Shown here piece by piece: positions 4,996 through 49,578 of a stretch of DNA of 64,000 bases; the first letter of the stretch is position 1, and every line of letters begins with the position of its first letter. The stretch comes from Salinivirgaceae bacterium. GTDB lineage: Bacteria > Bacteroidota > Bacteroidia > Bacteroidales > SZUA-534. Location of the stretch: assembly GCA_024405635.1 (NCBI GenBank), contig JAKSOL010000007.1:40755-104754 (forward strand). Reading direction: 5' to 3'. Both the position numbers and the translations under genes were made by a program. The notes under the pieces are model-generated. The model was not told where the DNA came from. It worked only from the letters and a program-made list of their open reading frames with translations, and ran no database searches.

Positions 4996-6606
<1,611 letters not shown>

Positions 6607-6629
6607 CCTTATTTTAAGTTTATTAAAAC

Positions 6630-7634: not shown

Positions 7635-9737
7635 CTACGAAATGCGGCCCCAATCAAACTCATATCGCCAACGGCGGGTTAATTCGCTTAGCAGAATAGA
7701 GTTGTTGTTATTGGCAAGGGTAGGGTCGTTGTCTAGTACTTGCTCGGCAGCATTTCGGGCAATAATCAAAATTTGGTTGTCGGTGCTAAGGTTGGCAATT
7801 TTCAGGTTAATGTCTAGTCCGCTTTGTTGTGTTCCTTCAAGGTCGCCAGGTCCGCGCAGTTTAAGGTCGGCTTCGGCAATGGCAAAACCGTCGCTTGTTT
7901 GCACCATGGTTTGCAAGCGTTGGCGAGCATCGGTGGTAAGTTTATTGCCCGACATGAGTATGCAGTACGACTGGTCAGCTCCACGGCCTACACGTCCGCG
8001 TAATTGGTGCAGTTGGCTCAAACCAAATCGTTCAGCGCTTTCAATAACCATTACCGAGGCATTTGGCACGTTTACACCTACTTCAATCACTGTGGTTGCT
8101 ATCAGTATATCGGCCTGATGGTTTATGAAGTAGTTCATCGATATGTCTTTGTCGGCTGGTTTCATTTGTCCGTGTACCACGCTTATTGAGTATTGCGGTG
8201 GCGGAAAAGCGCGCAATATGCTTTCAACTCCATCTTCAAGGTACTTGTAGTCGCTCGACTCCGATTCCTTTATCATTGGATACACAATGTAAATCTGTCG
8301 GCCAAGTTTTATTTGGTCGCGCATAAATTGAAATACTTGCAGCCTTTTTGTGTCGAAGAAATGGTAGGTTTTAATTGGTTTTCGGCCTGGTGGCAGTTCG
8401 TCAATTACCGACACGTCGAGGTCGCCATACAGAGTCATTGCCAAGGTGCGAGGAATGGGTGTGGCGGTCATTATAAGCACGTGTGGTGGTGTGTTGTTTT
8501 TCTTCCACAATTTGGCGCGTTGTGCTACTCCAAAACGGTGTTGTTCGTCAATCACTACCATGCCAATGTTGTTAAACACCACGTTGTCTTCAATAAGTGC
8601 GTGAGTTCCAACCACAATTTTTAGTTGTCCTGAAGCTAAATCGTCAAGCAATTTTTTTCGCACCGATTGTTTGGTTGATCCTGTGAGTAATGCTACAGGC
8701 AGTCCCATTGGTTGCAGCAAATCGCAAAACGACTTGTAGTGCTGTGTGGCCAATATTTCGGTTGGTGCCATAATGCAAGCTTGAAAACCGTTGTCAATGG
8801 CCAACAATATGCTCATAAGTGCTACAAGTGTTTTTCCGCTACCAACATCGCCTTGCAGCAAACGGTTCATTTGGTAACCAGTGTTGGTGTCGTGTCTAAT
8901 CTCGTGTAGCACTCGTTTTTGTGCTCCAGTTAGTTCAAACGGAAGGTGCTTTGAGTAAAAGGTGTTAAAATATTCGCCTACAGTGGTAAACCTATGCCCG
9001 CCAAAGGCTTTGGCTCTATGTCCTTTTATTCGTAGCATTTTAAGTTGTATGTAAAACAACTCTTCAAATTTTAATCGAAAACGAGCCCTTTCAAGTTCTG
9101 CTTGGCTTTGTGGAATGTGTATGTTCATTAGCGCATCGCCAAGTTTCATAAGATTTAGTTGCTCAATAATGTAGGCGGGTAAAGTTTCGTGTATCGAGCC
9201 TTTTATTTGTTGGTGTAGAGCTATTTGAATGTTGTGAATGGTGCGCGATGTTACATTGCGCGTTTTCATTTTTTCGGTAGTGTTATATAGTGGCAATAGC
9301 GCTGCCGATAGGTTTTGTTTGTGCTTGTCCATTGTCTCCATTTCGGGGTGAACAATGTTCAAGTTGCGGTTAAATTCGCTAGGCTTACCAAACACCACAT
9401 ATTCCTCGTTCAGTTTTAGCGACGAGCGTATCCATTTAATTCCGCGAAACCATACCAACTGAATCAGTCCTGTTTCGTCGGCAAAATAGGCTATCATTCG
9501 CTGTTGACGGCCTTCGCCAATAACATCAACTTTGGTAATTCGGCCTTTAATCTGAACCCAACCAAGTTGCTCGTTTAATTGGTTAATGGGGTAGTATCGA
9601 GTGCGGTCAAGATGTCGGTACGGAAAGTAATACAACATGTCGCGAACTGTTTTTATGTTCAGTTCGGTTGCTAAAATGTTGGCTCGTTCGGTTCCAACAC
9701 CTTTTAGGTACGTTATGTTGTCGTCAAGGTTTAGCAA
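7635..9737 (-). CDS. recG: ATP-dependent DNA helicase RecG
   Basis: 700 aa. It has Walker A GDVGSGKT, DEQHRFG, and SF2 helicase motifs, with an N-terminal wedge-domain-length region. Confidence 0.9.
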   Translation of the reverse strand: MLNLDDNITYLKGVGTERANILATELNIKTVRDMLYYFPYRHLDRTRYYPINQLNEQLGWVQIKGRITKVDVIGEGRQQRMIAYFADETGLIQLVWFRGIKWIRSSLKLNEEYVVFGKPSEFNRNLNIVHPEMETMDKHKQNLSAALLPLYNTTEKMKTRNVTSRTIHNIQIALHQQIKGSIHETLPAYIIEQLNLMKLGDALMNIHIPQSQAELERARFRLKFEELFYIQLKMLRIKGHRAKAFGGHRFTTVGEYFNTFYSKHLPFELTGAQKRVLHEIRHDTNTGYQMNRLLQGDVGSGKTLVALMSILLAIDNGFQACIMAPTEILATQHYKSFCDLLQPMGLPVALLTGSTKQSVRKKLLDDLASGQLKIVVGTHALIEDNVVFNNIGMVVIDEQHRFGVAQRAKLWKKNNTPPHVLIMTATPIPRTLAMTLYGDLDVSVIDELPPGRKPIKTYHFFDTKRLQVFQFMRDQIKLGRQIYIVYPMIKESESSDYKYLEDGVESILRAFPPPQYSISVVHGQMKPADKDISMNYFINHQADILIATTVIEVGVNVPNASVMVIESAERFGLSQLHQLRGRVGRGADQSYCILMSGNKLTTDARQRLQTMVQTSDGFAIAEADLKLRGPGDLEGTQQSGLDINLKIANLSTDNQILIIARNAAEQVLDNDPTLANNNNSILLSELTRRWRYEFDWGRIS

Positions 9738-12536: not shown

Positions 12537-13787
12537 ATGAATAAAAAAATAGCAACTTTGCTGATATTCTTTAATATAGCCACTTTTGGCAACTGTGTTT
12601 CGGCTCAGCAAAATGCGTCGGCACAACATTTGGTGGTGCTCGATGCTGGCCATGGTGGCCACGACACTGGTGCTATTGGTAAAAACAGCCGCGAAAAAGA
12701 TATTGTTCTTGCCATTACGCTTAAAGTGGGCGAGTACATTACCCAAAACGTACCTAACGTTAAGGTTATGTACACTCGCAAAACCGACGAGTTTATTGCT
12801 CTTGATGAGCGTGCTAACATTGCCAATCGTAACAATGCTGACTTGTTTGTGTCTATTCACGCCAACTCAAACAAAAGCAACAAACCTTTTGGTACCGAAA
12901 CTTTTGCAATGGGTTTGCATAAGTCGCAAGGCAACCTCGATGTGGCTCAAAAAGAGAACTCGGTTATTGTAATGGAGGACGATTACAACACTAAGTACGA
13001 GGGTTTTGACCCATCGTCGGCCGAATCGTACATCATCTTTTCGCTAATGCAAAACGTGTTTCTTGATAAAAGTTTGTCGCTTGCTAAACAGGTGCAAGAC
13101 GAGTTTCGCGACCGCGCCCGTCGTACCGACCGAGGTGTAAAACAAGCAGGTTTCTTGGTGCTTTGGCACACCAAAATGCCTAGCATACTCATCGAAACTG
13201 GTTTTATTTCTAATCCCGAAGAGGAAAAGTTCATTAGTTCAACTAACGGACAAGATTTGCTTGCATCGGCTATTTATCGTGCTATTAAAAACTACTTTGC
13301 CGAAATTGACAAGGACGAAGATTTGATGCGCCAAACCAAACCGCAAGCTTCTGAAACTAAAAAAGAGGATAAAAAGACCGACAAAAAACCAGCAAACGAG
13401 CAACCTAAATCTGAGGCAAAACCTGAACCTAAAGTTGAACCTAAACCTCAGCCAAAAACTGAACAAACAACCGCTCCTTCGGCTCAAAAAACGCAACCTC
13501 AAGCGCCAAAAACAGTAGCCGAGGCTCACAACATTTGCTACCGTGTGCAAGTTGCTACTTCAAACTCAAAACTCGACGCTAAAGCTAAGCAGTTTGCGGG
13601 TTTTAGCAATGTTTACGAGTTTTGCGAAGGAGGTAAGTATAAATACACGGTTGGTAAATTCGCAACCATTGCCGAGGCTAAAAAGTATCAGCAACAGGTT
13701 CGCGCAAAATATCCCGATGCTTTTGTCGTTGCTTTTGATGGTGATAAGAAAATATCGGTGTCTGAAGCACAAAAACTTGAAAAATAA
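12537..13787 (+). CDS. N-acetylmuramoyl-L-alanine amidase with P/K/E-rich linker and C-terminal SPOR-like domain
   Basis: Amidase_3 motifs (LDAGHGGHDTGA, SIHAN, ETGF), a low-complexity KPEPK linker, and a C-terminal YRVQVA...YKYTVGKF...A segment typical of SPOR. Confidence 0.85.
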   Translation: MNKKIATLLIFFNIATFGNCVSAQQNASAQHLVVLDAGHGGHDTGAIGKNSREKDIVLAITLKVGEYITQNVPNVKVMYTRKTDEFIALDERANIANRNNADLFVSIHANSNKSNKPFGTETFAMGLHKSQGNLDVAQKENSVIVMEDDYNTKYEGFDPSSAESYIIFSLMQNVFLDKSLSLAKQVQDEFRDRARRTDRGVKQAGFLVLWHTKMPSILIETGFISNPEEEKFISSTNGQDLLASAIYRAIKNYFAEIDKDEDLMRQTKPQASETKKEDKKTDKKPANEQPKSEAKPEPKVEPKPQPKTEQTTAPSAQKTQPQAPKTVAEAHNICYRVQVATSNSKLDAKAKQFAGFSNVYEFCEGGKYKYTVGKFATIAEAKKYQQQVRAKYPDAFVVAFDGDKKISVSEAQKLEK

Positions 13788-37342: not shown

Positions 37343-38023
37343 TTATTCAGCAACGTTCAAACTTGCTGCTTTTTCAGGCATATCAAGTGTTGTGTAAATG
37401 TTTTGAAGACCTTTAACAACGTTTTTGTTTGTTGGGTCGTACTCGTATGCTTTTTCAAACAAAGGCAAAGCTTCTTGGAATTTAGCATCAGCTTTAGCAT
37501 ATTCTGCTTTAAATTTATCAGGGTCGCTAGTGTTCATGCCACTTTCGTTAGCTGCTTTTTTAATGCTATTTGCTTCGTTGTACAATGGCATAGCTTTCTT
37601 TTGATAGCAACTACCAATAAGTTTTTTCATTGAAGCATCGTCAGGGAATTTGCCCAAACCTGCATTAAGGGTTTCAATTGCACCATCAACATCTTTGGTG
37701 TCCATTTGAATTTTGCCAAGTTGTTGGTACGATTTGTCAACCTTATAATCGGCCTCAATCGATTTGCGGAACAAAGCTATAGCTTCGTCGTTCATTTTTG
37801 CTTTAGCAGCGCAGTAAGCCGCGTTGTAGTTAATGTTTTTGTCAAGTTCTTTGCCATTTTTTTCGTTATCGGCAAGTACTTGAGTGTAAAGTTCGTATGC
37901 TTTTTTGTAGTCTTTGTTGCGATAAGCTTCGTTGCCGCTGTTTGTTGCTTCAACTACATCAAAATCTTGCGCTTGCACTGTCATTGCGAAGGCCAAAAGC
38001 GCCAAGGTGAATAAATTTTTCAT
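37343..38023 (-). CDS. tetratricopeptide-repeat protein (secreted or lipoprotein)
   Basis: 226 aa with a signal peptide and repeated TPR-like A..Y..A....P motifs. Confidence 0.7.
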   Translation of the reverse strand: MKNLFTLALLAFAMTVQAQDFDVVEATNSGNEAYRNKDYKKAYELYTQVLADNEKNGKELDKNINYNAAYCAAKAKMNDEAIALFRKSIEADYKVDKSYQQLGKIQMDTKDVDGAIETLNAGLGKFPDDASMKKLIGSCYQKKAMPLYNEANSIKKAANESGMNTSDPDKFKAEYAKADAKFQEALPLFEKAYEYDPTNKNVVKGLQNIYTTLDMPEKAASLNVAE

Positions 38024-38051
38024 AATACTAATGGTTTTAAAGGTTTATGTT

Positions 38052-38918
38052 TTATCCAAATACAATAGTCTTGTTGTTGTATACCAATATGCGGCGTTGA
38101 ATGTGATAGCGAATGGCTCGCGATAGCACAATTTTTTCAAGGTCTCGACCTTTCAACACTAGCGAGTCAATTGTGTCGCGGTGTGTAATGCGAGTAACAT
38201 CTTGTTCAATTATTGGACCTTCGTCAAGGTCGGTGGTTACGTAATGCGAAGTTGCACCAATAATTTTTACACCGCGTTTAAATGCTGCATGGTATGGTTT
38301 TGCGCCAGTGAATGCTGGCAAAAACGAGTGGTGTATATTGATGATTTTGTTTGGGTAGTGGTTTATAAAATCTTCTGACACTACTTGCATGTAACGAGCT
38401 AAAACAACAAATGATATGTCGTTGTCTTCCAATAATTTAAGCTCTTTTGCTTCTTGTTCTGCTTTATTTTCTTTAGTGATAGGAAAACAATAGTAAGGTA
38501 TGCCAAATTGCTCAACAACTTTACGCATGTCTTCGTGATTGCTTATAACCAATGGAATTTCAACTTCCCATTCTTTTGATTGGTATCGAGCCAAAATATC
38601 GAACAAGCAGTGGTCCATTTTTGATACAAACAACGCCATGCGAGGTTTGTCTTCCGATAGGTATATTTTAAACTCCATATCGTACGATGATGCGATAAGA
38701 GTTTGGAAATAGTCTTGAATCTTGTTTTTAGGAATAATAAATTCGCTTAAATCCCACTGAATGCGCATAAAAAACTGCCCATCTTCGTGGTCAACGTGCT
38801 GGTCAAGCTGAAGTATGTTTCCGTGGTTATTTTGAATAAACTCTGTAACCTTGGCTACAATTCCGCGTTGGTCGCGGCAGTGCATCAATATGGTTGCAGT
38901 GCTAACAGTAGTGTTCAT
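38052..38918 (-). CDS. purU: formyltetrahydrofolate deformylase
   Basis: 288 aa with an N-terminal ACT domain and a formyltransferase core (IINIHHSFLPAF.GA.PY). Confidence 0.85.
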   Translation of the reverse strand: MNTTVSTATILMHCRDQRGIVAKVTEFIQNNHGNILQLDQHVDHEDGQFFMRIQWDLSEFIIPKNKIQDYFQTLIASSYDMEFKIYLSEDKPRMALFVSKMDHCLFDILARYQSKEWEVEIPLVISNHEDMRKVVEQFGIPYYCFPITKENKAEQEAKELKLLEDNDISFVVLARYMQVVSEDFINHYPNKIINIHHSFLPAFTGAKPYHAAFKRGVKIIGATSHYVTTDLDEGPIIEQDVTRITHRDTIDSLVLKGRDLEKIVLSRAIRYHIQRRILVYNNKTIVFG

Positions 38919-39042
38919 TGTATATACTTTTTTTGAAAAACAGTGCCAAATGTATAAAAAACCTTACTTGCACAAAAATAATACGCGGGACTTTTTAGAT
39001 AGCTGAGGATGCTGAGTCAAATAACAAGAACGAAAGTGTTAC

Positions 39043-39077
39043 GTATTATATAATGCTCAATCTAAGACAAGTAAAAC
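39043..39077. repeat. repeat copy 1 (most degenerate, 31/35)
   Basis: GTATTATATAATGCTCAATCTAAGACAAGTAAAAC. Confidence 0.8.
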
Positions 39078-39253
39078 CATATCTACTCTTATCAACGGAA
39101 ATGGACTAAAATGATGTGGAATGTCTACTTTTGTAAAACTAAAACGCAGAAAAACAACGCCGATGTCTACTTCGGTAAATTATTAATTCAATAAAAAATT
39201 TTCTGTGTCTACTTTTTTGAGCTGGTACAAATTTTTTGGTCCAATGTTTTCAT

Positions 39254-39367
39254 TACCGTCATTTTGATATCAATTTTCGAAAAAAGTTACTGTCATTTTG
39301 AGTAGATTTTCCAATATTTTTACCGTCATTTTGAAACTAAATCATAATATTTGTACCGTCATTTTGA
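39254..39367 (+). repeat. four iteron-like copies of TAC(C/T)GTCATTTTGA at 33-34 bp spacing
   Basis: Copies start at 39254, 39288, 39321 and 39354. The last ends 19 bp before the ATG of the DUF4143 ATPase gene. Confidence 0.7.
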
Positions 39368-39385
39368 GCTCAATACTTATTTATC

Positions 39386-40732
39386 ATGGCCGAAATATAT
39401 CAAAGAGAGGCATTGCAAAGCCTCAGGGAATGGAAGGAAAAGGCTGAACGCAAACCACTTATATTAAGAGGTCCGCGTCAGGTTGGGAAAACTACACTCG
39501 TGGATATTTTCTCAAAGGATTTTGAATCGTACGTTTACCTAAACCTTGAAATCGAGGAAAACGCAAAACTATTCGATACGAGCAAAAACATAAACGAGCT
39601 AATAACCTCGATATTTTTCATTGGCGGGCAAAAGATCAACAAGACAAGCAGCCTACTTTTCATCGACGAGATACAGAACTCGGCACAGGCTGTTATGATG
39701 CTGAGATATTTCTACGAGCAGGCTCCATGGCTTTATGTAATATCAGCAGGCTCACTATTGGAAAACCTTGAAAAAAGGAATATCTCATTCCCTGTGGGCA
39801 GAGTGGAATATATGGCTTTGCGTCCATTCTCGTTCAAGGAATATGCGTGGGCAAATCTAGGCGAGGATGTCTACAACGCCATCAACTCCGTATCCATACC
39901 AGAGGCTTATCACAGCAAGCTGATAAAGGAATTCAACACATACACATTGATAGGCGGCATGCCAGAAGTGGTATCCAACTTCATAAAATACAAAGATATT
40001 CTGAAACTGAACGAGATATACGACACCCTGCTGACCGCGTATCGTGATGACATAGAGAAATACGCTCCAAGAGAGAGCATAACCAAGGCAATGCGTTACA
40101 TAATGGAACACGGTTTCCCATACGCGTCGCAGGAAATAGTATTGGGAGGCTTTGCAGGATCGGCTTACAAGTCAAGGGAAATCGGAGAGGCATTCTCGCT
40201 GCTATCAAAATCGATGCTAACAGAACTTGTGTATCCATCCACGTCAACCGAGATACCGGCTCCTCCAGATATGAAGCGCAGACCCAAACTAATGTGGCTC
40301 GATACAGGAATAGTAAACTACGCCTCTGGCCTTAGGAAAGAGATACTTGGCGCCAATGATATTCTCGACGTTTACAAAGGTAAGATTGCGGAACACATTG
40401 TAGGCCAGGAAATAATATCGACCGACAGCAGATGCTCTTTCCGAAGAAGCTACTGGGTAAGAAACAAACAAGGCTCTGACGCAGAAATGGATTTCACCTT
40501 ACAGAAAGACAACAAGATGATCCCAATAGAAGTAAAAGCAGGAACCAACGCACACTTAAAATCGCTTCACATCTATATGGAAGAATCAGATCAGAATGTA
40601 GCCATCAGAATTTGGTCGAACCCGATGCAAATAGATGACATAAAAACTCCGAAAGGCAAAACTTTCAAACTGATTAACCTGCCTTTCTACTATGTGAGCA
40701 AGATAAACGAGATTTTGGAAAAGGAGATATAA
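39386..40732 (+). CDS. AAA+ ATPase with DUF4143-type C-terminal domain
   Basis: 448 aa with Walker A GPRQVGKTT and Walker B LLFIDEIQ. Its length and architecture are typical of COG1373-like ATPases. It lies between the two degenerate repeats. Confidence 0.8.
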   Translation: MAEIYQREALQSLREWKEKAERKPLILRGPRQVGKTTLVDIFSKDFESYVYLNLEIEENAKLFDTSKNINELITSIFFIGGQKINKTSSLLFIDEIQNSAQAVMMLRYFYEQAPWLYVISAGSLLENLEKRNISFPVGRVEYMALRPFSFKEYAWANLGEDVYNAINSVSIPEAYHSKLIKEFNTYTLIGGMPEVVSNFIKYKDILKLNEIYDTLLTAYRDDIEKYAPRESITKAMRYIMEHGFPYASQEIVLGGFAGSAYKSREIGEAFSLLSKSMLTELVYPSTSTEIPAPPDMKRRPKLMWLDTGIVNYASGLRKEILGANDILDVYKGKIAEHIVGQEIISTDSRCSFRRSYWVRNKQGSDAEMDFTLQKDNKMIPIEVKAGTNAHLKSLHIYMEESDQNVAIRIWSNPMQIDDIKTPKGKTFKLINLPFYYVSKINEILEKEI

Positions 40733-40951
40733 GAAAAAAATCGGAGTTTTAGCGGAATCTATCTAAAAAGGGCACATTCCGCTAAAACTCCGAAAGGCAA
40801 ATTTTTAATTATTTATCTGATATTGTGAAAATTAGGCTATGTTCTCAGCAAAATGAGGTAGGGCGTTTTTAGGGATTTTAGGGGAAGTTCGAAAAGGTGA
40901 ATAACCTGCCTTTCTGGTATACGAGCAAGATTTATGTATCGTGATACATAA

Positions 40952-40986
40952 GTTTTACATAATGCTCAATCTAAGACAAGTAAAAC
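40952..40986. repeat. repeat copy 2 (33/35, shares the AATCTAAG variant with copy 1)
   Basis: GTTTTACATAATGCTCAATCTAAGACAAGTAAAAC. Confidence 0.95.
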
Positions 40987-41220
40987 ATAAGCCATACCCA
41001 AATCGCCTTCGTCGATTATTATATTTTTCAATTGTTCGCCTGTAATACGACGTGTTTGCAAAGTTTCCCAACCAAACGGCAGTGTGCCGTCGTTGTTGGC
41101 TTGAATGTAGTTCACAGCCTTAACATTAAGATCAGTTCTTGTTTCTGCTTCGATACAGAAGTAAACATTTTCGTCGCCTTTTATACGAAAAAAATGTCGT
41201 TGAATGTCTATTAGTTTCAT
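40966..41220 (-). CDS. hypothetical protein; last codons and stop are supplied by repeat copy 2
   Basis: 84-aa ORF. The C-terminal VLLVLD* is encoded by the reverse complement of the repeat, so the native 3' end is probably missing. Confidence 0.35.
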   Translation of the reverse strand: MKLIDIQRHFFRIKGDENVYFCIEAETRTDLNVKAVNYIQANNDGTLPFGWETLQTRRITGEQLKNIIIDEGDLGMAYVLLVLD

Positions 41221-41440
41221 AATTCTTGTTTTTATGTATTGTTTAGTTAGTTATTTGTTTATTTTTGCATCGAGTTCAGCGTCTTTATCGCTAAACAATG
41301 AATTGGCTTCCAACAGCGAGAGCAATTGTAGCTCTCCCATCGCGGATAGCCAATTTTTAATTTTACGACTATCGTAATACCACACATTGTTAGTAGCAAT
41401 AGATTGCTCTATTTTAGTACATATTTTATTGTCATTTTGA

Positions 41441-41475
41441 GTTTTACATAATGCTCAAACTCAGACAAGTAAAAC
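41441..41475. repeat. repeat copy 3 (consensus)
   Basis: Exact 35-mer. Confidence 0.95.
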
Positions 41476-41531
41476 TAATACAGAACAAGTACAACGAACT
41501 TGTTAACCGCATGCAGGCGGTGGTCTTTTAG
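41476..41531 (+). pseudogene. 3'-terminal fragment (last ~17 codons) of a HicB-like gene
   Basis: Encodes IQNKYNELVNRMQAVVF*, near-identical to the C-terminus of 43913..44308. It starts exactly at the repeat boundary. Confidence 0.8.
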
Positions 41532-41610
41532 GACTTAATCAACATTAAGGCGGTGCTGCATTCACCGCTTTTTTTTTGCTTTTAAAAAAAATTTTGTAAT
41601 TTTGTAGTGC

Positions 41611-41697
41611 TTTATAAGCATCCCTGGACTCGCTCCGAGATTGGGTTTGTGTCGAAAGGCTCATACCACCAAAGCCTAACAGTGTTAGGCTTTTTTT
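41611..41697 (+). ncRNA. candidate structured small RNA, copy A
   Basis: Upstream lie TTTG (41575-41578), an 18-nt spacer and TAATTTTG (41597-41604), which fit the Bacteroidetes -33/-7 promoter. The body contains a GAAA-tetraloop hairpin. It ends in the terminator AAAGCCTAAC-AGT-GTTAGGCTTTTTTT (41671-41697). A diverged homologous copy lies at 43741-43832 on the minus strand. Confidence 0.45.
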
Positions 41698-41927
41698 GTT
41701 AATGACGAGTTTGTTTTGATGACATTATAGCCGTCGTCAAAGTAATAATATACCTTTATTTTATCTATATGCCACAAATTGTACAATGCGTTGATAGCCT
41801 TATCTGTATCAATACCTCTTTCTAAGCATTGCAACACGATTTCAGCCTTTTGATGATTTATGGCATAACGTGCTTTTTTTTCAATATTACCAGTTCCTTT
41901 GGTTTGTTTCAAATCTGCTGGAATGCC
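41685..41927 (-). pseudogene. 3' half of a gene homologous to 43235..43734, truncated at the repeat
   Basis: The reading frame GIPADLKQTKGTGNIEKKARYA... runs right up to repeat copy 4. It aligns with ...DGIPADLKQTKGTGNIEKYARYA... of the longer copy. Confidence 0.8.
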
Positions 41928-41962
41928 GTTTTACATAATGCTCAAACTCAGACAAGTAAAAC
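41928..41962. repeat. repeat copy 4 (consensus)
   Basis: Exact 35-mer. Confidence 0.95.
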
Positions 41963-42374
41963 TTACAATACCCTTTACAGTGATGTTTTTTATGGTTGCA
42001 CCGCTCGAATACCCGAATAATCCGATACTGCGTGTTTCAGCCGAACTGTCAGCAACATTCATATTCGAAATGGTGTGGTTGTTGCCGTCAAAAACACCTT
42101 TAAACGGATTCCTTGCCTCGCCAATGCTAAACCACGGTTGATTGTTCAGGTCGATGTCCGCAATAAGTTTATAGTGCAAAGTATCAAATCCCTGTGTTCC
42201 GGCACTAACAACATACGACATAAACGCCAGTTCGTTAGCGGTTCCAATAATATATGGCGACTCTTTGCTGCCATCACCTTCTGTGAATTCTTCCATGGCG
42301 CCTTCCCATGCGTCTGCCGCATGAGTGTTAATCACCGCCAACACCATGACGATGCTAATGAATGTAATCTTTCT
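41963..42374 (-). pseudogene. internal fragment of a secreted GLUG-motif-type surface protein gene, truncated at both repeat boundaries
   Basis: The minus-strand frame begins mid-signal-peptide (RKITFISIVMVLAVINTHAADA) directly after a stop contributed by the repeat. It contains PFKGVFDGNNHTISNMNV and IGLFGYSSGATIKNITVKG and ends after about 137 codons inside repeat copy 4. Confidence 0.7.
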
Positions 42375-42409
42375 GTTTTACATAATGCTCAAACTCAGAC
42401 AAGTAAAAC
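42375..42409. repeat. repeat copy 5 (consensus)
   Basis: Exact 35-mer. Confidence 0.95.
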
Positions 42410-42604
42410 TTTTAGATGTTTCAAATCGGAGGGCGAGAATTTGCCCACCTCCGCCTTGTAAGTAACACGTGTTATTTTGCCGTTCTTTACGTAAAAAGAA
42501 ACTTTTACTACATTGCCGTTCTTTACAGCGTGAACGTGAATGGGTTTGTGTTCGCCAGAATAGAACAAAATTTTTATTCCAAGATATTCGTATATTACAG
42601 GCAT
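42395..42604 (-). CDS. DUF4160 family protein, 3' end replaced by repeat sequence
   Basis: MPVIYEYLGIKILFYSGEHKPIHVHA is typical of DUF4160. The terminal VLLV* is encoded by repeat copy 5. Confidence 0.75.
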   Translation of the reverse strand: MPVIYEYLGIKILFYSGEHKPIHVHAVKNGNVVKVSFYVKNGKITRVTYKAEVGKFSPSDLKHLKVLLV

Positions 42605-42676
42605 AAATTAAAACTCCTTATAATGATTATTTGTAATTCCCACGAAAGGCTTACTACTACTAAACGTTGCACAACA

Positions 42677-42943
42677 ATGTGCATTAACAAGATTATTGCC
42701 GATTGTAAAGCATTTAAGATTGGCAAAACTGGCGACCCTCAAAGCAGGGCGGCCAATTATGGCGATTTTGACAAAATGTATCTTTTGGTTCAAAGCAAAA
42801 ATTCGCTTCTGATTGATAGGCTTGAAGGCTACTATACCCAAAAGTATTACGGCCATAAAAAAAATATGAATATAAACAGAGGTTCTGCGGCTGTTATGGC
42901 TTCTTCTCATAGGACTTACTATTTATATATTGTTGTCAAATAG
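42677..42943 (+). CDS. hypothetical protein (88 aa)
   Basis: The start is taken at ATG 42677 (MCINKIIADCKAFKIGKTGDPQSR...). The upstream part of track ORF 42416..42943 is antisense to the DUF4160 gene. No family was recognised with confidence. Confidence 0.35.
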   Translation: MCINKIIADCKAFKIGKTGDPQSRAANYGDFDKMYLLVQSKNSLLIDRLEGYYTQKYYGHKKNMNINRGSAAVMASSHRTYYLYIVVK

Positions 42944-43192
42944 GCCATTATACATACTTAACGGATTTATGTCTGCTCCGTTGTCCCAAGTAACAATGCC
43001 GTCAACTACGCCAACTTTGGCAAATAATTCTTTGTCGATTAAGGCCTTAAAAACTGGGAAATAGCCTTTTTGTATGTTGTTTTTTAGATAGCATATTTTT
43101 TCTGTGCCATCATAAAATTGCACTTGTAAGGCATATTCGTCTATGTTATATACTTTAACCGACTTCACATCAAAAAAGGCTTTTTCCTTCAT
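42923..43192 (-). CDS. DUF2442 family protein
   Basis: 89 aa. The segment ...YALQVQFYDGTEKICYL...VDGIVTWDNGADINPLSMY is typical of DUF2442. The start codon lies only 7 nt from repeat copy 6. Confidence 0.8.
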   Translation of the reverse strand: MKEKAFFDVKSVKVYNIDEYALQVQFYDGTEKICYLKNNIQKGYFPVFKALIDKELFAKVGVVDGIVTWDNGADINPLSMYNGLFDNNI

Positions 43193-43199
43193 TGTTTTG

Positions 43200-43234
43200 G
43201 TTTTACATAATGCTCAAACTCAGACAAGTAAAAC
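43200..43234. repeat. repeat copy 6 (consensus)
   Basis: Exact 35-mer. Confidence 0.95.
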
Positions 43235-43734
43235 ACGATATTAGCAATATTAGTGAGTTGGCTGAAAATCGTGCAGAGTTCATGGCGTATGCGACAAATC
43301 CTGATTATACATCTACGTTCGACACTGGCAGCGGTGGTTTCTTGGCTAAACATAACTCACGAATACCTAACGACTCAACGTCAAAGAACGATATAGAGAA
43401 GTATGAGAAAGAAATAAGAATGTGCGATGTATTCGTAAAGGCTGGGCACAAGATTGTTTACAAAGAAGATGTCCAAGGGGAGTATGATGTGTTATTTGAC
43501 GGAATTCCAGCAGATTTGAAACAAACCAAAGGAACTGGTAATATCGAGAAATACGCAAGGTACGCCGTGAAGAGTCAGAAAGCAAAAATGGTGCTTTTTT
43601 GTTTGGAAAAGGACATAAATAGAAACAAAGCGGAGGAGGCACTAAGAGCGTTGTATATAGTAGATAAAATCAAAGTGTTGTATTATTATGAGGACAATAC
43701 GAATGTTGTTTTGTCTAATAAATCACTTCTATAA
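43235..43734 (+). CDS. hypothetical protein with possible PD-(D/E)xK-like motif (polymorphic-toxin / polyvalent-protein style)
   Basis: The frame is open from repeat copy 6, and the first internal ATG is at 43282 (MAYATNPDY...). The motif EYDVLFDGIPADLKQTKG suggests a D...D-x-K nuclease. The family assignment is tentative. Confidence 0.4.
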
Positions 43735-43740
43735 AATAGA

Positions 43741-43832
43741 AAAGCCCAACAATAACATTGTCAGGCTTTTAGTGGTACGAGTCTTTCGACACGTACCCTA
43801 TCTCGGGGCTAACCCAGGGACTGCCATTTAAG
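43741..43832 (-). ncRNA. candidate structured small RNA, copy B
   Basis: The reverse strand carries TTTG (43865-43868), an 18-nt spacer and TAATTTTG (43839-43846), the same promoter geometry as copy A. It has a 10-bp stem with a GAAA loop and a terminator hairpin (43741-43770) shared with the convergent gene. Confidence 0.45.
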
Positions 43833-43912
43833 ACACTACAAAATTACAAAATTTTTTATAAAAGCAAAAGAAAAAGCGGTGAATGCAGCACCGCCTTAAT
43901 GTTGATTAAGTC

Positions 43913-44308
43913 CTAAAAGACCACCGCCTGCATGCGGTTTACAAGTTCGTTGTACTTGTTCTGTATTATTGCTTTCTGCTTGTCCGATACTGGTACAAGT
44001 TTACGTTTGTATTTGCGCATCATTGCTGCGTTTAGACCTATTTCCTTGGCGAATGCTGTGGCGTTGATAAATGGAAATTGCTCAAAGAACCCAGATATGT
44101 CGTACACGTATTCTACTGCGATATTGTCACTATACCAATCTGGGTATTTCCCTGTTTGTTCCATGTGGTATTTGGCTTGCTCAACCATAACTTCCTCGAA
44201 GCATGTTTTAGCCTCTTGTTCTGTCATGCCACTGCCGTACACGCCTTGCGCATCGTTGGTGTAAATAGCAAAACCTCCGTCTGCGCCCCTCTCAATAACT
44301 GCTTTCAT
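43913..44308 (-). CDS. HicB-like antitoxin family protein (no hicA partner present)
   Basis: 131 aa. The N-terminus MKAVIERGADGGFAIYTNDAQGVYGSGMTEQEAKTCFEE is typical of the HicB/UPF0150 fold, and the C-terminal region is HTH-like. Confidence 0.6.
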   Translation of the reverse strand: MKAVIERGADGGFAIYTNDAQGVYGSGMTEQEAKTCFEEVMVEQAKYHMEQTGKYPDWYSDNIAVEYVYDISGFFEQFPFINATAFAKEIGLNAAMMRKYKRKLVPVSDKQKAIIQNKYNELVNRMQAVVF

Positions 44309-44393
44309 GTTCGTTTAGTTTTATCATTGTTCTTTAAAAAAAAAGTTGAACTGCCCCCCACTAAGGGGAGCAGCGTTCTACTTTAGTCCTGCG

Positions 44394-44428
44394 GTTTTAC
44401 ATAATGCTCAAACTCAGACAAGTAAAAC
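44394..44428. repeat. repeat copy 7 (consensus)
   Basis: Exact 35-mer. Confidence 0.95.
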
Positions 44429-45293
44429 GGCTAACGCTTTTTCAAAGGCAATTACCGAGCGCGAAGTCCGCAAAACCGACAAGTATGCTGCCGAGATTAA
44501 CGCCATTAAAGGCAAGTTGCTCGACTTTATCAACAAAGGCGCTGAAATTAAAGATTCGCACTTTGACAAATACAACGATATTGCTAACAAACAAGTGTTG
44601 CACCCATTTGTAAAAATTGTGCGTGCTTACATTAAGATTAACGGCAAAGAAAACGTTAAAAAGCAAGCCAACACCATTTGCACCAACATTGCAAATCTTT
44701 GCAAAGTATTGCCAGCCGATTTTGAATTTATGGCACAACTTAAAGCAATTGAAAAAAGCTTAAACAACTACATTGAGGGCAAAACAGCAACGCCTAAAAT
44801 GTTGCAAACCGAATTAAGCGGTTTAGGTCGCATTGCCGATAACGACGAAGATGCAAGCACTGCATATTTAGTTACTCTATCAAGAAAAGAAGTGTACGAA
44901 GATGGTTACAGAGATAGTGAAACATTGCTAAAATCTAACGACTACAATGCCGCTATTGCATTTTTTAATGACAAGAAAAAGCAATTGCAAAATATGGCAG
45001 AAGATGATGTTTGCGATTATGATTTAACTATGTGGGTAGGCGACTATGAGGATATTGTAGAAGAAGAATTTGCAGATTTTATAGGAGAACCAACCGATGG
45101 TTATGCGGTTTTAATTAAAGACAGCCATGGTTACTTAATAGAAAATGGCGATGGAAAAACCGAAAGGGATTTTGTGCTCGAAGATTGTAAGGTAAAATTA
45201 GTTAAGAAAGACGAATTAACAGACGAAATACAAATTAGTTTTGGATTTCCAAAACGATGGGTAAAATTAGGTTTAATACCTTCAAGATTATAA
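44429..45293 (+). pseudogene. 5'-truncated ORF of unknown function (mobile-element-like)
   Basis: The frame is open from repeat copy 7 for 100 codons before the first ATG. Track ORF 44346..45293 reads through the repeat (VLHNAQTQTSKT). It shares a YI-x-x-x-TATP motif with the N-terminal part of 45929..46789. Confidence 0.55.
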
Positions 45294-45309
45294 GATATAA
45301 CTAACAACA

Positions 45310-45340
45310 AAAAAGCCGCGCTTAAAGGCGTGGCTTTTTT
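45310..45340 (+). terminator. rho-independent terminator
   Basis: AAAAAGCCGCGC-TTAAA-GGCGTGGCTTTTTT. Confidence 0.7.
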
Positions 45341-45426
45341 ACTTTGACAAGGCAAAGTACCTTGATGGCGCAGGGGCGTTAATCAATATTTCAGCCTAAC
45401 GACAACGTCCGAAACGTATTCCCTGA

Positions 45427-45948
45427 TTGTCCGATGCAAGTATAAGGAAAAAATATATACACAAACAAGATATGCGAGAAAAAATAATAGAATATATCAA
45501 AAAGGCGTGGAACGGCGAAAAATGCAGCAGATTGCTGGATATAACCAGTGCAATTGACATACAAGCACTGGAAGTTGCAAATAGTATAATTGATAAATTA
45601 AACGAAATACAAGATAGAGAAAAATACGACCACATTAAAAAAGTTAAAATATATGCAGTCGATTTTGATCACACAAAAGAAAGACATTTTGGTGCAAATG
45701 AAACAAGGACAGACCAAATACCTTTAACATTTGATGATATACCTTTGTTAGTCGATACTTTATTGTCGCCGCAATTGGTAAGATTAGGAACATTACGCCA
45801 AGATACAGGAGCAGGAATACACTTTATTAGCCAGTTGGATAATGGTAAAATGATTTGCGTACTAATAAAAGTTAAGCCGCAAAAAGAAACTTATAAAAAT
45901 AGAACAATATATAAAAAGAAATTAAAAGATGGAAGCAAGAATAGTTGA
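45427..45948 (+). CDS. PBECR-like (Barnase/EndoU/ColicinE5-RelE-like) nuclease domain protein
   Basis: The motif DFDHTKERHFGANETRTDQIPLTFDDIPLLVDTLLSP resembles the H-x3-RH ... pit-x-eDi pattern of polyvalent-protein nuclease domains. The likely start is ATG 45472. Confidence 0.45.
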   Translation: MSDASIRKKYIHKQDMREKIIEYIKKAWNGEKCSRLLDITSAIDIQALEVANSIIDKLNEIQDREKYDHIKKVKIYAVDFDHTKERHFGANETRTDQIPLTFDDIPLLVDTLLSPQLVRLGTLRQDTGAGIHFISQLDNGKMICVLIKVKPQKETYKNRTIYKKKLKDGSKNS

Positions 45949-46789
45949 TTTTTATATGGTAGAAAACACCAATAAGGACAAACGCCTACGCTTAATGAAA
46001 ATGAAAGCGCTTGCACTGGCTGAACCGCTTGACGGTTTAGCCACAACCAAGTGTGCTAACAATCAACCTGCCGATATTGTTAATCGATATTTGGATTTAC
46101 TCGATAAGCCAACACGCGCCGCCGCAATGGGCGTTTTGTCGTCGGTTGAGCGCTTTATTGAGCAAGCCGATAATAATTACCCTTATATGGCTGAATTTGC
46201 GGCTATGGCTGTAAGTTTGAGCGATTATATTAACGAAGAAACGGCAACACCACAAATTGCAGCCATCGACCTTAATAACATTCATAAAATATCAGGCGTT
46301 AATGTTGATAATAGCGAATTAAAAGGCATTGTAAGTAGTAAAACGCTGCTTGCTCATCAGTTTGAGCCGCTGAACTTTGGTGGTAAGTGGAAACTGTTAT
46401 TTGGTCGCCCAACCGCGCCTTTTAAGGTAATGGTACACGGAGCGCCCGGAAATGGCAAATCAACTTTTGCTATACAATTCGCTAAATACCTTGCCAGCAG
46501 CCACAAGTTGCGTGTATTGTATATTGCTAATGAAGAGAGTTTTACATACACCTTTCAGGAGAAACTTATGCGCCTGAACGCAATAGACGACAACCTGAAA
46601 ATAGCCGATTCGCTACCTGATAACTTTGACGATTATGATGTAGCGTTTTTCGATTCAGTAAACACAATGAAACTCGATATTGACGATTTACGACGAATAT
46701 TCAAACAAAACGACAAAACTTCGTTTGTGTTGATTTTTCAAAACAACAAGAAAGGTCAATTTAGGGGTTCGCTTGAGTGTTTTACATAA
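45929..46789 (+). CDS. RecA-like/AAA ATPase (phage or plasmid type), 3' end cut by repeat
   Basis: Walker A is HGAPGNGKST and Walker B-like is YDVAFFDS. The ORF ends ...GSLECFT* with the last codons and the stop inside repeat copy 8. Confidence 0.55.
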   Translation: MEARIVDFYMVENTNKDKRLRLMKMKALALAEPLDGLATTKCANNQPADIVNRYLDLLDKPTRAAAMGVLSSVERFIEQADNNYPYMAEFAAMAVSLSDYINEETATPQIAAIDLNNIHKISGVNVDNSELKGIVSSKTLLAHQFEPLNFGGKWKLLFGRPTAPFKVMVHGAPGNGKSTFAIQFAKYLASSHKLRVLYIANEESFTYTFQEKLMRLNAIDDNLKIADSLPDNFDDYDVAFFDSVNTMKLDIDDLRRIFKQNDKTSFVLIFQNNKKGQFRGSLECFT

Positions 46790-46813
46790 TGCTCAAACTC
46801 AGACAAGTAAAAC
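46779..46813. repeat. repeat copy 8 (consensus, cas2-proximal)
   Basis: Exact 35-mer, 50 bp from the cas2 stop codon. Confidence 0.95.
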
Positions 46814-46863
46814 AGACTATTGGCTAATTTATTGAATAAGAGTATACTATCATTGGTTTGCTG

Positions 46864-47184
46864 TTAAAAAAAATCAATCAAATCGGGCTTTTTTAGCAAA
46901 ATCTCGTCATTTTTTCGTTTCTGTTTTCGTCCAAAATAATGGTAAGAAGCTTCGTTGTGTTTGTCATCTACCACTACTACACTTATTTGGCATTTGCCGC
47001 AAATAGCTTCCATTATTCGCTTTTTATGAACTAATGCGTTGGCCATAGAGTAACAATACCGTATATATAGATTGGAGTATAACTTATTGAATCCGTCCTT
47101 CTCTAGTTGACGCGAAAAATTCTTTTTACATTCCTTGCCTGTTGATGTGCGGTTGGAAATGTTCATAAAAACGTAAATCCACAT
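46864..47184 (-). CDS. cas2: CRISPR-associated endoribonuclease Cas2 (type II-like)
   Basis: 106 aa. MWIYVF.N...........F...L.KDGF......LY.RYC aligns with my recollection of type II-C Cas2. It lies immediately downstream of cas1 (3-nt gap). Confidence 0.8.
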   Translation of the reverse strand: MWIYVFMNISNRTSTGKECKKNFSRQLEKDGFNKLYSNLYIRYCYSMANALVHKKRIMEAICGKCQISVVVVDDKHNEASYHYFGRKQKRKNDEILLKKPDLIDFF

Positions 47185-47187
47185 AAC

Positions 47188-48045
47188 TTAAAACAATGAA
47201 GGGTAATATATTACACGTCGCTCACCTAAGTAAATCTGCGATAGCGAATAAGTTGTTTGTGACACATCGTCGGGTTTTATTGACTCGTAGAATAGCTCCA
47301 AAATGGCTTTTTTGAAGTTGTGGTCAATGCATCTTTGGCCGATGGTGTATAGTTCAAGCACTTTTTCGTCAACAAATGGTCGATATGGTTCCATAACATC
47401 GTCGCTCAACGGAAAGGAGTTGTATCGGTTTTTATGAAAAACACCAATCATTGGCAATAAACCTGAATTCATTAGCGCACGCGATACTACCGACCGCAAA
47501 ATGGCATATCCGTAGTTTAGCATATCGTTGGGACAATTGCCGTAACGGTCGCGTATAAAATCTTTGCCTAGCAAAAGTTTCCAATATGTTGCGGCTGCCA
47601 AAGCCTCGCGATTTGTTGTGTCGCCACTTTTAACATTCTTATGGTACTTGCTCAACACATCTTCTCCCTTGCCCAATTTTTGTAGCAATAGCGACTGGTT
47701 GTGTATCTTATGTTCTATTATCTGTTTCCAGATTTGTTTTCTAACGGGTTCTGTTGTCGCTAACTGCGCGTTAAAGGTCATTGTTTGCCGTACGTTTGAC
47801 TCTAAGTCTAAAGTCATGCTTACGGGCATGTGGCGCTCGTCGCAAAAAACTATGCTTATGTTGTTTTGAGACAACTTGTTAAGCAGTGGCACAGTGATGC
47901 GTACCGAATGGTTATCGACTAAAATACCCGACACGTCCTCTAACGAACGCATGATTGGGTCTTTATCTTCTTGACAAATTAAAAGCTGCCCATCTTTCAA
48001 CGATAGATCGGCTTTGTTTTCAAATACAAGTGTTTGTTTTGGCAT
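47188..48045 (-). CDS. cas1: CRISPR-associated endonuclease Cas1 (type II subtype)
   Basis: 285 aa, collinear with type II Cas1: IVFCDERHMP, NREALAAATYW, LNYGYAILRS, GVFHKNRYNSFPLSDDVMEPYRPFVD. The catalytic E, H and D/E positions are retained. Confidence 0.9.
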   Translation of the reverse strand: MPKQTLVFENKADLSLKDGQLLICQEDKDPIMRSLEDVSGILVDNHSVRITVPLLNKLSQNNISIVFCDERHMPVSMTLDLESNVRQTMTFNAQLATTEPVRKQIWKQIIEHKIHNQSLLLQKLGKGEDVLSKYHKNVKSGDTTNREALAAATYWKLLLGKDFIRDRYGNCPNDMLNYGYAILRSVVSRALMNSGLLPMIGVFHKNRYNSFPLSDDVMEPYRPFVDEKVLELYTIGQRCIDHNFKKAILELFYESIKPDDVSQTTYSLSQIYLGERRVIYYPSLF

Positions 48046-48167
48046 AATTGTTTTCTAAATGGTTTCTACTAAAGAATGAAAATAACAATGGGTGTGTAGG
48101 TTTGGTTGTACACAACCATATTTTTATTAACCTTGCAGTCTAAAATTTTGGTGGAGATATATCCACT

Positions 48168-48198
48168 AGAGTGCTTGGTAACCTCTTAAAAAACAAGG
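48168..48198 (+). promoter_or_regulatory. preQ1-I riboswitch candidate
   Basis: AGAGUGCUUGGUAACCUCUUAAAAAACAAGG. P1 pairs AGAG with CUCU. The loop CUUG (48174-48177) can pair with the tail CAAG (48194-48197) to form the pseudoknot. There is an A-rich tail, and the ATG at 48201 follows. The pattern parallels the Bacillus and Thermoanaerobacter preQ1-I aptamers, and the downstream genes are yhhQ-queC-queF. Confidence 0.7.
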
Positions 48199-48200
48199 AT

Positions 48201-48890
48201 ATGGTAAAAAAACAACCAACAGTGAGTGTGCTGTTTATGCTTTTCAGTGTACTCTTTTGTGTTTGCTTAATAGCTGCAAACATTTTCGAAACAAAGCAAG
48301 TGGCATTTTTCAGTCACAGCCAAACTGCAGGTGTAATTGTGTTTCCAATTTCGTACATCATAAACGATTGTGTGTGCGAGGTTTGGGGGTACAAAAAAAC
48401 ACGTTTACTCATTTGGCTTGGATTCTTAATGAATTTCTTTTTTGTAGCAGTTGGTGCTTTGTGCGATGCGCTTCCTCCTGCCGAGTATTGGGACAATCAA
48501 GCTGGTTTTCATGCAATTTTTGGACTTGCACCACGCATTGCAGCCGCGTCGTTTGTGGCTTTTGTTTGTGGCTCGTTTATCAATGCTTATGTAATGTCGC
48601 GAATGAAACTTCGCGATGGCGAGAATCGTTTTTCGCTTCGAGCTATCTTAAGTACAATTTTTGGCGAAAGTGTTGACTCTATTATATTTTTCCCATTGGC
48701 TTTGGGCGGCATTGTACCTTGGTCCGAAATGCCATGGCTAATGCTTTTTCAAGTTGGGTTAAAAACTGTGTACGAAATAATTGCTTTGCCAATCACTATT
48801 CGTGTAGTTCGTGCAGTTAAGCGAGCTGAAGGAACCGATGTTTACGATGAAGGTATTTCGTATAGCATTTGGAAATTGTTCGATTTGTAG
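48201..48890 (+). CDS. yhhQ: queuosine precursor transporter (YhhQ/VUT family)
   Basis: Polytopic membrane protein with the VFPISYIINDCVCEVWGY motif. The start is moved from the track GTG at 48171 to ATG 48201, because 48171-48198 is the riboswitch. Confidence 0.8.
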   Translation: MVKKQPTVSVLFMLFSVLFCVCLIAANIFETKQVAFFSHSQTAGVIVFPISYIINDCVCEVWGYKKTRLLIWLGFLMNFFFVAVGALCDALPPAEYWDNQAGFHAIFGLAPRIAAASFVAFVCGSFINAYVMSRMKLRDGENRFSLRAILSTIFGESVDSIIFFPLALGGIVPWSEMPWLMLFQVGLKTVYEIIALPITIRVVRAVKRAEGTDVYDEGISYSIWKLFDL

Positions 48891-48924
48891 GTGCGAGTAA
48901 ATTTTTAACCTAAAACCAAAAAAC

Positions 48925-49578
48925 ATGGATAGTGCATTAGTGGTTTTTAGTGGTGGACAAGATTCTACCACGTGCTTGTTTTGGGCAAAACAAAAGTTTA
49001 ATAGGGTTGTGGCCTTGTCGTTTACCTACGGACAAAAGCATGCAAAAGAAGTAGAGCAAGCAGAAATTATTGCTCGCGAGGCTGGTATAGAATGGCAATG
49101 TATTGATGCTAGTTTTATTTCAAATTTAGCATCTAACTCGTTAACCAACAGTACGATGCAAATGGATACTGAAAAACCCGCAGGTTCGCCTCCAAATACG
49201 TTTGTGCCTGGGCGGAATTTGTTCTTTTTGAGCATTGCAGCGGTAGTTGCTCGTGAACATGGCATAAAAAATATTGTTACAGGGGTTTCGCAAACCGATT
49301 TCAGTGGTTATCCCGATTGCCGCGACGAGTTTATTAAAAGTCTTAATCAAACCATAAATCTAGCAATGGATTACCAGTTTACTATACACACACCGCTAAT
49401 GTGGATTGATAAATGTCAAACTTGGGAAATGGCAGATAAGTTGGGCGTTTTTAATATTATTCGTACGCAAACAATAACTTGCTACAATGGAGTTATTGGC
49501 GATGGTTGTGGCAATTGTCCTGCTTGTAAATTACGTAAAATAGGATTGGATAAATATTTAAAAATCAGAAAAATATGA
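48925..49578 (+). CDS. queC: 7-cyano-7-deazaguanine synthase
   Basis: [15 protein letters not shown]-loop and a C-terminal Cys cluster, CYNG...[10 protein letters not shown]. Confidence 0.95.

Follow-up and report, generated by a model that had tools for sequence, protein, structure and literature searches.

We analysed a window of 64,000 nucleotides (nt) from a Salinivirgaceae bacterium (order Bacteroidales; GenBank assembly GCA_024405635.1, contig JAKSOL010000007.1, positions 40,755 to 104,754), in which long DNA segments are separated by copies of a 35-nt direct repeat, GTTTTACATAATGCTCAAACTCAGACAAGTAAAAC, next to a cas1-cas2 gene pair. Positions given below are counted from the first nucleotide of this window. 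A search allowing up to 3 mismatches yielded 7 matches to the repeat in the window and 0 in dinucleotide-preserving shuffles. Because an eighth, degenerate copy was found at 39043, the array starts there and not at 40952. A preliminary description of this DNA had overlooked both this oldest unit and the adjacent cas1-cas2 genes, although its reading of the junctions and of the fragments between them is supported by the results reported here. The 8 copies span positions 39043-46813; 6 are perfect, and the 2 farthest from the cas genes are degenerate (Table 1). Short and near-identical direct repeats of this kind (about 23-55 nt) are those seen in clustered regularly interspaced short palindromic repeat (CRISPR) arrays. 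The segments, however, although unique, are 412-2350 bp long and do not resemble the short spacers of similar length (about 21-72 nt) that are expected in such arrays.

Related loci were gathered by genome scan, protein search, genomic-context retrieval and metagenome scan. The 129 related or comparison loci obtained, numbered L001 onwards, were classified by script according to Cas1 identity, Cas9-sized open reading frame (ORF), repeat and spacing.

Table 1. Features of the repeat array and of the adjacent cas genes in the window (aa, amino acids).
Feature	Position	Strand	Remarks
Terminal repeat, farthest from cas genes	39043..39077		Degenerate, 4 mismatches
Segment A, oldest, 1874 bp	39078..40951		Whole ATPase gene (AAA_14 + DUF4143) at 39386..40732 (+); upstream region and terminator (hairpin) included
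Repeat, 2 mismatches	40952..40986		Older variant TCTAAG, common to the terminal copy and to relative L001
Segment B, 454 bp	40987..41440		ORF 40966..41220 (-), last 6 codons and stop repeat-derived
Perfect repeat	41441..41475
Segment C, 452 bp	41476..41927		Diverged, inverted counterpart of an internal stretch of segment F; contains only two 3' gene ends and their intergenic region
Perfect repeat	41928..41962
Segment D, 412 bp	41963..42374	(-)	One 137-codon stop-free frame; signal-peptide-like start without ATG; no stop before next repeat
Perfect repeat	42375..42409
Segment E, 790 bp	42410..43199		3'-truncated DUF4160 gene 42395..42604 (-); complete DUF2442 gene 42923..43192 (-)
Perfect repeat	43200..43234
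Segment F, 1159 bp	43235..44393		5'-truncated phage gene 43237..43734 (+); complete HicB-like gene 43913..44308 (-)
Perfect repeat	44394..44428
Segment G, newest, 2350 bp	44429..46778	(+)	5'-truncated ORF (to 45293); weakly PBECR2-like ORF 45427..45948; 3'-truncated AAA_24/RadA-like ATPase gene 45929..46789
Leader-proximal perfect repeat	46779..46813		Limit of homology with L001 and L005
Putative leader, 50 bp between cas2 and first repeat	46814..46863	(-)	About 90% identical in L001 and L005
cas2, 106 aa	46864..47184	(-)	Similarity to Cas2 of Cas9-linked loci
cas1, 285 aa, type II family	47188..48045	(-)	TIGR03639

The Cas1 protein scored 284.5 bits on the type II model TIGR03639 (cut-off 120), and a profile of its clade matched the type II Cas1 structures of the PDB with an E-value of about 1e-50. 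In 30 members of the clade there is no variation at the catalytic residues E147, H204, D215 and D216. The Cas2 protein matched TIGR01573 below cut-off and had no match among PDB sequences. It was identified as Cas2 because of its similarity to the Cas2 of Cas9-linked loci, with which it could be aligned over its full length (27-32% identity, E about 1e-13). In the window protein an N occupies the place of the conserved Asp of the FDLP motif found in these relatives. The island is flanked by purU and by a Vut_1 (YhhQ-type) transporter gene, and cas1 and cas2 are the only ORFs outside the segments between these two genes, a region in which no IntI-type tyrosine recombinase was found. No Cas9 is encoded in the 64-kb window, whose largest ORFs correspond to LptD, a SpoIIE-type sensor, AlaRS, RecG and DsbD. 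An Rfam search of positions 38000-49000 produced sub-threshold noise only, with no match to a trans-activating CRISPR RNA (tracrRNA), and no anti-repeat was found by blastn-short, a search in which Cas9-linked control loci gave no clear signal either. The cas1-cas2-leader module (46792-48046) is ~90% identical to positions 8259-9512 of L005, where the gene upstream of cas1 encodes an aminotransferase and not the Vut_1 transporter. Either the module has moved, or the genomes have been rearranged.

According to the preliminary description, almost every repeat junction interrupts an ORF. Comparisons with homologs and profiles bear this out, placing at least 8 of the 14 segment ends of the window inside genes. 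The ATPase of segment G, which ends in ECFT* within the last repeat, could be aligned with full-length relatives of 482-500 aa up to ...FRGSxE. Homology stops at this point, and the CFT* that follows is provided by the repeat, whereas the relatives go on for 30-45 conserved residues. At the other end of the same segment, the ORF entering at 44429 does lack its start: it aligns to residues 208-376 of a 457-aa protein with 86% identity, and in about 100 further relatives the match also begins internally, at roughly position 130 or later. The ORF that enters segment F at 43235 is truncated at its 5' end, corresponding to positions 270-391 of the 459-position profile phrog_23416, while the right end of this segment lies 85 nt upstream of the complete HicB-like gene. 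Segment C, which had been read as the 3' ends of two genes, aligns end to end, in inverted orientation, with columns 267-734 of segment F. As it is internal to this homolog, both of its ends lie inside genes. In segment E, the DUF4160 gene takes its last codons from the repeat (VLLV*) and extends only over positions 1-47 of the 65 of the Pfam profile and 1-39 of the 86 of the PHROG profile; the DUF2442 gene is whole, and 7 nt separate its ATG from the repeat. The ORF of segment B also borrows its last codons and stop from the repeat; no homologs were found for it, and neither profile nor Pfam comparison assigned it to a family.

Segment D had been described as the beginning of a GLUG-type surface protein. 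The open frame was confirmed, running from RKITFISIVMVLAVINTHAADA (RKITFISIV...), straight after a TAA carried by the repeat, into the next repeat. The label was dropped: there was no Pfam match even at E=1 and no GLUG motif, and a protein search returned the segment itself only. A weak match to phrog_30905 was detected.

Some segments carry genes that are not cut, namely the ATPase gene of the oldest segment, which covers both its AAA_14 and DUF4143 Pfam profiles in full, and the HicB-like and DUF2442 genes. Whole small genes in some fragments are expected of random pieces of 0.2-3.5 kb. In ten arrays, the median length of stop-free runs at junctions was 73 codons, compared with 66 at random internal positions and 36 in shuffled sequences, indicating that the junctions are not placed between genes. 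Homologs of the ATPase, of the left ORF of segment G and of phrog_23416 run past the junctions instead of ending there, and the gene-repeat junctions do not recur in the closest relative, L001, whose segments are entirely different. The possibility that repeats had been inserted into a pre-existing island was considered and rejected, since the gene parts that are missing do not occur in the adjoining segments, and segment C represents part of segment F as an inverted allele.

Comparison of the loci separated two groups. In the first, Cas1 is about 49% or more identical to that of the window, no Cas9-sized ORF lies upstream, the 35-36-nt repeat differs between loci, and the segments measure 164-3483 bp. 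In the second, which comprises more than 60 loci, Cas1 identity is 43-48%, a Cas9-sized ORF of about 1200 aa ends at cas1, the 36-nt repeat GTTGTGGTTTGATGTAGGAATCAAAAGATATACAAC is conserved, and the spacers (1356 unique) are 29-30 nt long. All Cas9-less loci formed a single clade in a neighbour-joining tree, sister to the Cas9-linked loci. Their Cas1 proteins have 284-287 aa versus 294-296 aa in the Cas9-linked relatives, with an 8-residue deletion near the C-terminus. A long-segment array was present in the Cas9-less group wherever the assembled contig extended to it, giving 12 arrays with 63 segments (the window, L001, L003, L007, L009, L016, L018, L019, L020, L097, L103 and L122). The median segment length was about 566 bp for the first 54 segments. 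At least 120 protein clusters share 52-95% identity with the window Cas1, and the first six of them to be sampled for genomic context were all without Cas9 (6/6). No effector was seen in any of about 20 Cas9-less loci inspected, and the chromosomal neighbours were different every time. Within any one array of this clade the repeats are identical; those of different arrays are unrelated, except for their GTTT...AAAC ends. Divergence between loci is expected once the repeat is free of the constraint of a Cas9-tracrRNA pair. It also follows that the repeats are made locally by duplication and are not brought along by the insert, as attC sites are.

Like integrons, these loci consist of a chromosomal array of gene-sized inserts between repeats, added at one end. 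An integron-like platform was considered, with the repeats as sites of recombination and the segments as gene cassettes that are captured in order to be expressed. Whole genes are indeed found in some segments (AAA ATPase, HicB-like, DUF2442), a few lie only 7-11 nt after a repeat (DUF2442 here, a CstA-like gene in L003), and internal promoters of the Bacteroidetes type are present. Integrons, however, possess a tyrosine recombinase and one attC per cassette, and their cassettes are mostly complete, promoterless ORFs in one orientation. Here the enzyme encoded next to the array is Cas1-Cas2, the orientation of the segments is mixed, the repeats are of local origin, and the junctions cut genes, both in the window and in the junction ORFs of four other arrays. 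An integron-like platform is thus quite improbable. The earlier view of the segments as arbitrary pieces of foreign DNA, the opposite of integron cassettes, agrees with the truncated genes, the locally made repeats and the phage-type content described below.

The repeats also record how the arrays grow. Degenerate copies are always at the cas-distal end (window, L001, L003, L016, L018, L097, L103 and L122). In the window, the two oldest repeats carry TCTAAG, as in L001, and the six newer ones ACTCAG; in L122, the four repeats nearest to the cas genes have a G that the older ones do not. These inherited variants indicate that newer repeats are copies of the leader-proximal repeat. A single gain could be observed between strains. 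L103 and L109 encode the same Cas1 protein as L101, L102 and L104 and are 100% identical to them through cas1, cas2, the leader and the first repeat, but contain exactly one additional unit at the leader, made of a 557-bp segment and one 35-nt repeat, beyond which the loci are collinear at 99.8% identity. A one-unit strain difference next to the leader is, in its form, the signature of CRISPR adaptation. In a further group with an identical Cas1 protein (L111, L112 and L115), three different sequences come after the first repeat in different samples, and many contigs stop inside it. From cas1 through the first repeat, the window shares about 90% identity with L001 and L005; the similarity ends there, and the segments of L001 are all different. 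A type II-derived Cas1-Cas2 pair with an intact active site adjoins each array. As judged from these comparisons, new units enter at the leader end, the repeat being duplicated exactly, and what is inserted are arbitrary pieces, from sub-genic to multi-genic, derived in large part from phages.

The absence of Cas9 and the many contigs that break at the array might point to a defunct type II-C locus in which later insertions or rearrangements took the place of the ordinary spacers, or else to an assembly artefact. This reading is scarcely tenable. Spacers of 30 bp were found in 0 of the 12 arrays, the repeats are perfect and gains are recent, the Cas1 active site is conserved, and independent samples and assemblies yielded the same array (L009-L012; L101, L102 and L104).

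Several irregular arrangements were seen around the leader and at the array ends. Inside the arrays of L020 (136 nt exact, 9846-9981 and 13618-13753) and L122 (87 nt, 99%, 6523-6609 versus 9888-9974), a repeat is directly followed by a copy of the leader, which in L122 marks the switch between repeat variants. In L020, cas1-cas2 itself is situated between two repeats. L097 has a full inverted copy of the repeat upstream of cas1 (2910-2943), followed at 2944-3502 by a third allele of a region already present twice in the downstream array. Just past the degenerate array end of L103 (6314-8662), toxin-antitoxin gene pairs of the HigB-like/helix-turn-helix and NTP_transf_2/HepT types were found.

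We next consider the ends of the segments in the 12 arrays (in the window, those between 39078 and 46778). Reading inward from either junction, positions 3-5 are A-rich, with an A at position 4 in 61 of 108 ends, where the background is 28.5% (p = 2e-9); no bias is seen at positions 1-2 and 6-12. From this symmetric NNAAA...TTTNN bias it follows that the captured duplex tends to end in ...TTTNN-3' on both strands. The 1356 spacers of the Cas9-linked sister clade showed no comparable end bias, the maximum being 34%. The signature looks like a selection or trimming rule acting at both ends.

In two arrays, a short segment proved to be the end-to-end inverted homolog of an internal part of a longer segment: segment C of the window (41476-41927) corresponds to 43499-43968 in segment F, and segment 4 of L097 (7122-7664) to 5835-6361 in segment 2. 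Identity within these pairs is 96-100% over the terminal 45-140 nt and 36-66% in mid-segment. A third pair, in L103, overlaps only partially. The inverted orientation may reflect survivorship, because direct duplicates would delete. The near-identical ends could result either from homology-guided recapture or from conserved flanks of a variable phage gene.

Segments C and F have also both kept a perfect promoter motif of the Bacteroidetes type, TTTG-N18-TAATTTTG (41575-41705, + strand, and 43735-43868, - strand, respectively), followed by ~70-100 nt and a hairpin with a U-run. This may be a phage small-RNA gene carried whole; folding gave z = -3.9 for the segment F copy and z = -1.3 for that of segment C. 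Another promoter-like element, TTGAAATTTTTGTATTTTTGC, occurs in segments of three unrelated arrays (L019 1862-1893, L097 6987-7018 and L103 about 1490-1515), with a 32-nt perfect match between L019 and L097. In segment A, four direct repeats with the core TTACCGTCATTTTGA, spaced ~33 bp apart at 39246-39367, lie just upstream of the AAA_14/DUF4143 gene and could be operator-like.

The phage-like character that had been attributed to the segments is supported, with truncated minor head, baseplate hub and tape-measure genes at the junctions of other arrays. A full-length relative of the segment G ATPase is located on a phage-like contig with a holin, an endolysin and a 1016-aa tail-type gene, and a relative of the HicB-like protein (64% identity) on an IMG/VR viral contig. 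The junction ORF of L009 matches positions 165-271 of the 459 of phrog_23416 and contains the Pfam domain LPD3. At the DNA level this ORF matches the fecal phage record MT839296.1, where the gene encodes 412 aa, follows a 501-aa ORF and runs about 190 codons past the point at which it is cut in the array. Segment 3 of L001 corresponds to positions 312-430 of the 438 of phrog_19194, and segment 2 of L097 to positions 182-312 of the 319 of phrog_4930, a baseplate hub family. One gene called in L122, which matches a tape-measure profile (TMP_3), begins inside a segment and reads through the repeat at 9415-9449. A tentative assignment of two L103 junction ORFs to the same minor-head family was not confirmed by PHROGs or Pfam. 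Not every insert is clearly viral: in L003 a repeat is followed, 11 nt on, by the start of a complete CstA-like gene, with a second gene next to it.

Fragments of the minor head or "polyvalent" family phrog_23416/phrog_19194 were found in three arrays (window 43237-43734, L001 segment 3 and L009 segment 5), and LPD3 domains in L009 segment 5 and L001 segment 1. This recurrence may mean that capture is preferred near one region of the phage genome.

The phage-like content would also be expected if mobile elements integrated site-specifically into CRISPR repeats, mimicked as attachment (att) sites, and then decayed to remnants. Prophage integration into CRISPR repeats is reported for Streptococcus pyogenes (bioRxiv 10.1101/2020.10.09.333658), again with kilobases of phage DNA between two CRISPR repeats. 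In that case a whole prophage reportedly entered a normal array by means of its own integrase, whereas here there are many sub-genic fragments and no integrase. Neither an integrase nor att-like repeat fragments were found within the segments, which are pieces of 0.16-3.5 kb with both ends inside genes. All 63 of the 63 segments are small and none is a whole element. The clean gain of the 557-bp unit with one exact repeat duplication points in the same direction, and we regard integration of mobile elements as very improbable.

The array is thus probably of the CRISPR type, built by a type II-derived Cas1-Cas2 integrase that has no adjacent Cas9 and inserts fragments of ~0.16-3.5 kb, mostly from phages and mobile elements. 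As the comparative anatomy of the arrays shows, double-stranded fragments of about 0.16-3.5 kb are inserted at the leader-adjacent repeat in place of 30-bp spacers, each insertion duplicating the 35-nt repeat and the fragment ends ignoring gene boundaries. We infer that Cas1-Cas2 is the inserting enzyme. In the mechanism that we propose, the length ruler would have been lost along with Cas9, because the Cas9-dependent measuring step of type II adaptation would be absent. For type II-A, a Cas9-integrase complex reportedly produces fragments whose length is precise (PMC8034620). The two DNA ends might be engaged independently, as in casposon integration, under a weak two-sided rule favouring 3' ends in ...TTTNN. 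The resulting array is probably a heritable archive of invader DNA for defence, although our confidence in this role is low. Such an archive might work by way of long transcripts, both sense and antisense, by homology, or with the help of an effector whose gene lies elsewhere in the genome.

Several observations weigh against this interpretation. The integrase activity is deduced from sequence comparisons only, and the Cas1-Cas2 complexes characterised structurally measure spacer length, whereas the present one would have to handle kilobase DNA. Most of the loci come from metagenome assemblies, which are prone to break inside such arrays. No near-identical source was recovered for any window segment: the phage collection contained no match to the DNA of segments from L103, from L097 or from the window (F and G), protein-guided IMG/VR scans with the ATPase and the first ORF of segment G gave nothing, a 38-mer taken from the part conserved between segments C and F had no exact match in IMG/VR, and tblastn of the segment F ORF against phages was negative. 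The complete host-like genes (CstA-like in L003, AAA ATPase in the window) imply that capture may not be specific for invaders. Finally, no effector, tracrRNA or processing signal was found at the locus, which leaves the defence role without a mechanism.

The last two points would be accounted for if insertion proceeded by the same mechanism but served no function, the integrase inserting any DNA ends after the loss of Cas9 and the arrays being neutral junk or a selfish by-product. The lack of an effector in the loci inspected also fits this scenario, but an idle integrase would be expected to decay. Instead, over a clade in which Cas1 identity falls to about 49%, the catalytic residues do not vary and the Cas2 partner is conserved, the repeats are perfect, gains are recent, and the module occurs in many species and environments. 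We therefore consider a functionless array unlikely.

In a bolder form, the proposed archive described above would represent a previously unrecognised class of CRISPR-derived systems: an effector-less, adaptation-only and ruler-less Cas1-Cas2 that writes kilobase invader fragments under its own ...TTTNN-3' end rule, may recapture variants of regions already in the archive by homology, and maintains an archive acting via long RNAs or homology and not via a Cas nuclease. We put this proposal forward tentatively, being rather more inclined to doubt it than to accept it as a whole.

The locus shares several features with the type II-C adaptation module of Bacteroidales: a type II Cas1 (TIGR03639) with a matching Cas2, repeats of 35-36 nt with short inverted termini, a leader beside the cas genes, polarised growth with repeat duplication, and degenerate distal repeats. 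It differs from it by the absence of Cas9 and of a detected tracrRNA, by segments of 164-3483 bp instead of 29-30 nt, by a repeat that is unconstrained between loci, by a Cas1 that is 8-10 residues shorter near its C-terminus, and by the two-sided NNAAA end signature. In casposons, as here, an enzyme of the Cas1 family inserts kilobase DNA and duplicates the target sequence. Casposons, however, mobilise themselves and have terminal inverted repeats, a family B polymerase and no Cas2. In the window array the repeats are direct, Cas2 is present, and the segment ORFs that were searched gave no polymerase match; what is stacked in one array, beside Cas1-Cas2, are arbitrary foreign fragments that have no inverted ends. 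A purely functional analogy may be drawn with the PIWI-interacting RNA (piRNA) clusters of animals, graveyards of invader fragments in both orientations that could yield complementary RNA. This likeness concerns the content of the array; no sign of transcription, of processing or of an Argonaute-like effector was seen here.

CRISPRCasFinder is not known to consider spacers of the size found here. Because standard array finders are tuned to short spacers, loci with long spacers have likely been missed systematically; the 2025 classification of CRISPR-Cas systems detected arrays with CRISPRCasFinder at near-default settings. In the literature covered, which includes this updated classification and a 2023 deep-clustering survey but is incomplete, so that an earlier description is possible, we found no Cas1-Cas2 arrays with inserts of hundreds to thousands of bases. 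The arrays would represent CRISPR adaptation machinery that lacks an effector and whose product is radically different.

For DNA recording and insertion, an attractive tool would be an integrase that needs only two small proteins and a 35-nt target to write kilobases into a defined site. The length of spacers is regarded as fixed for Cas1-Cas2, and a natural clade inserting 0.16-3.5 kb would show that the ruler can be lost. If this is true, the functional gap between casposon integration and CRISPR adaptation would be narrowed, and the question would arise of the role that an archive of lengthy invader fragments plays without a Cas effector.

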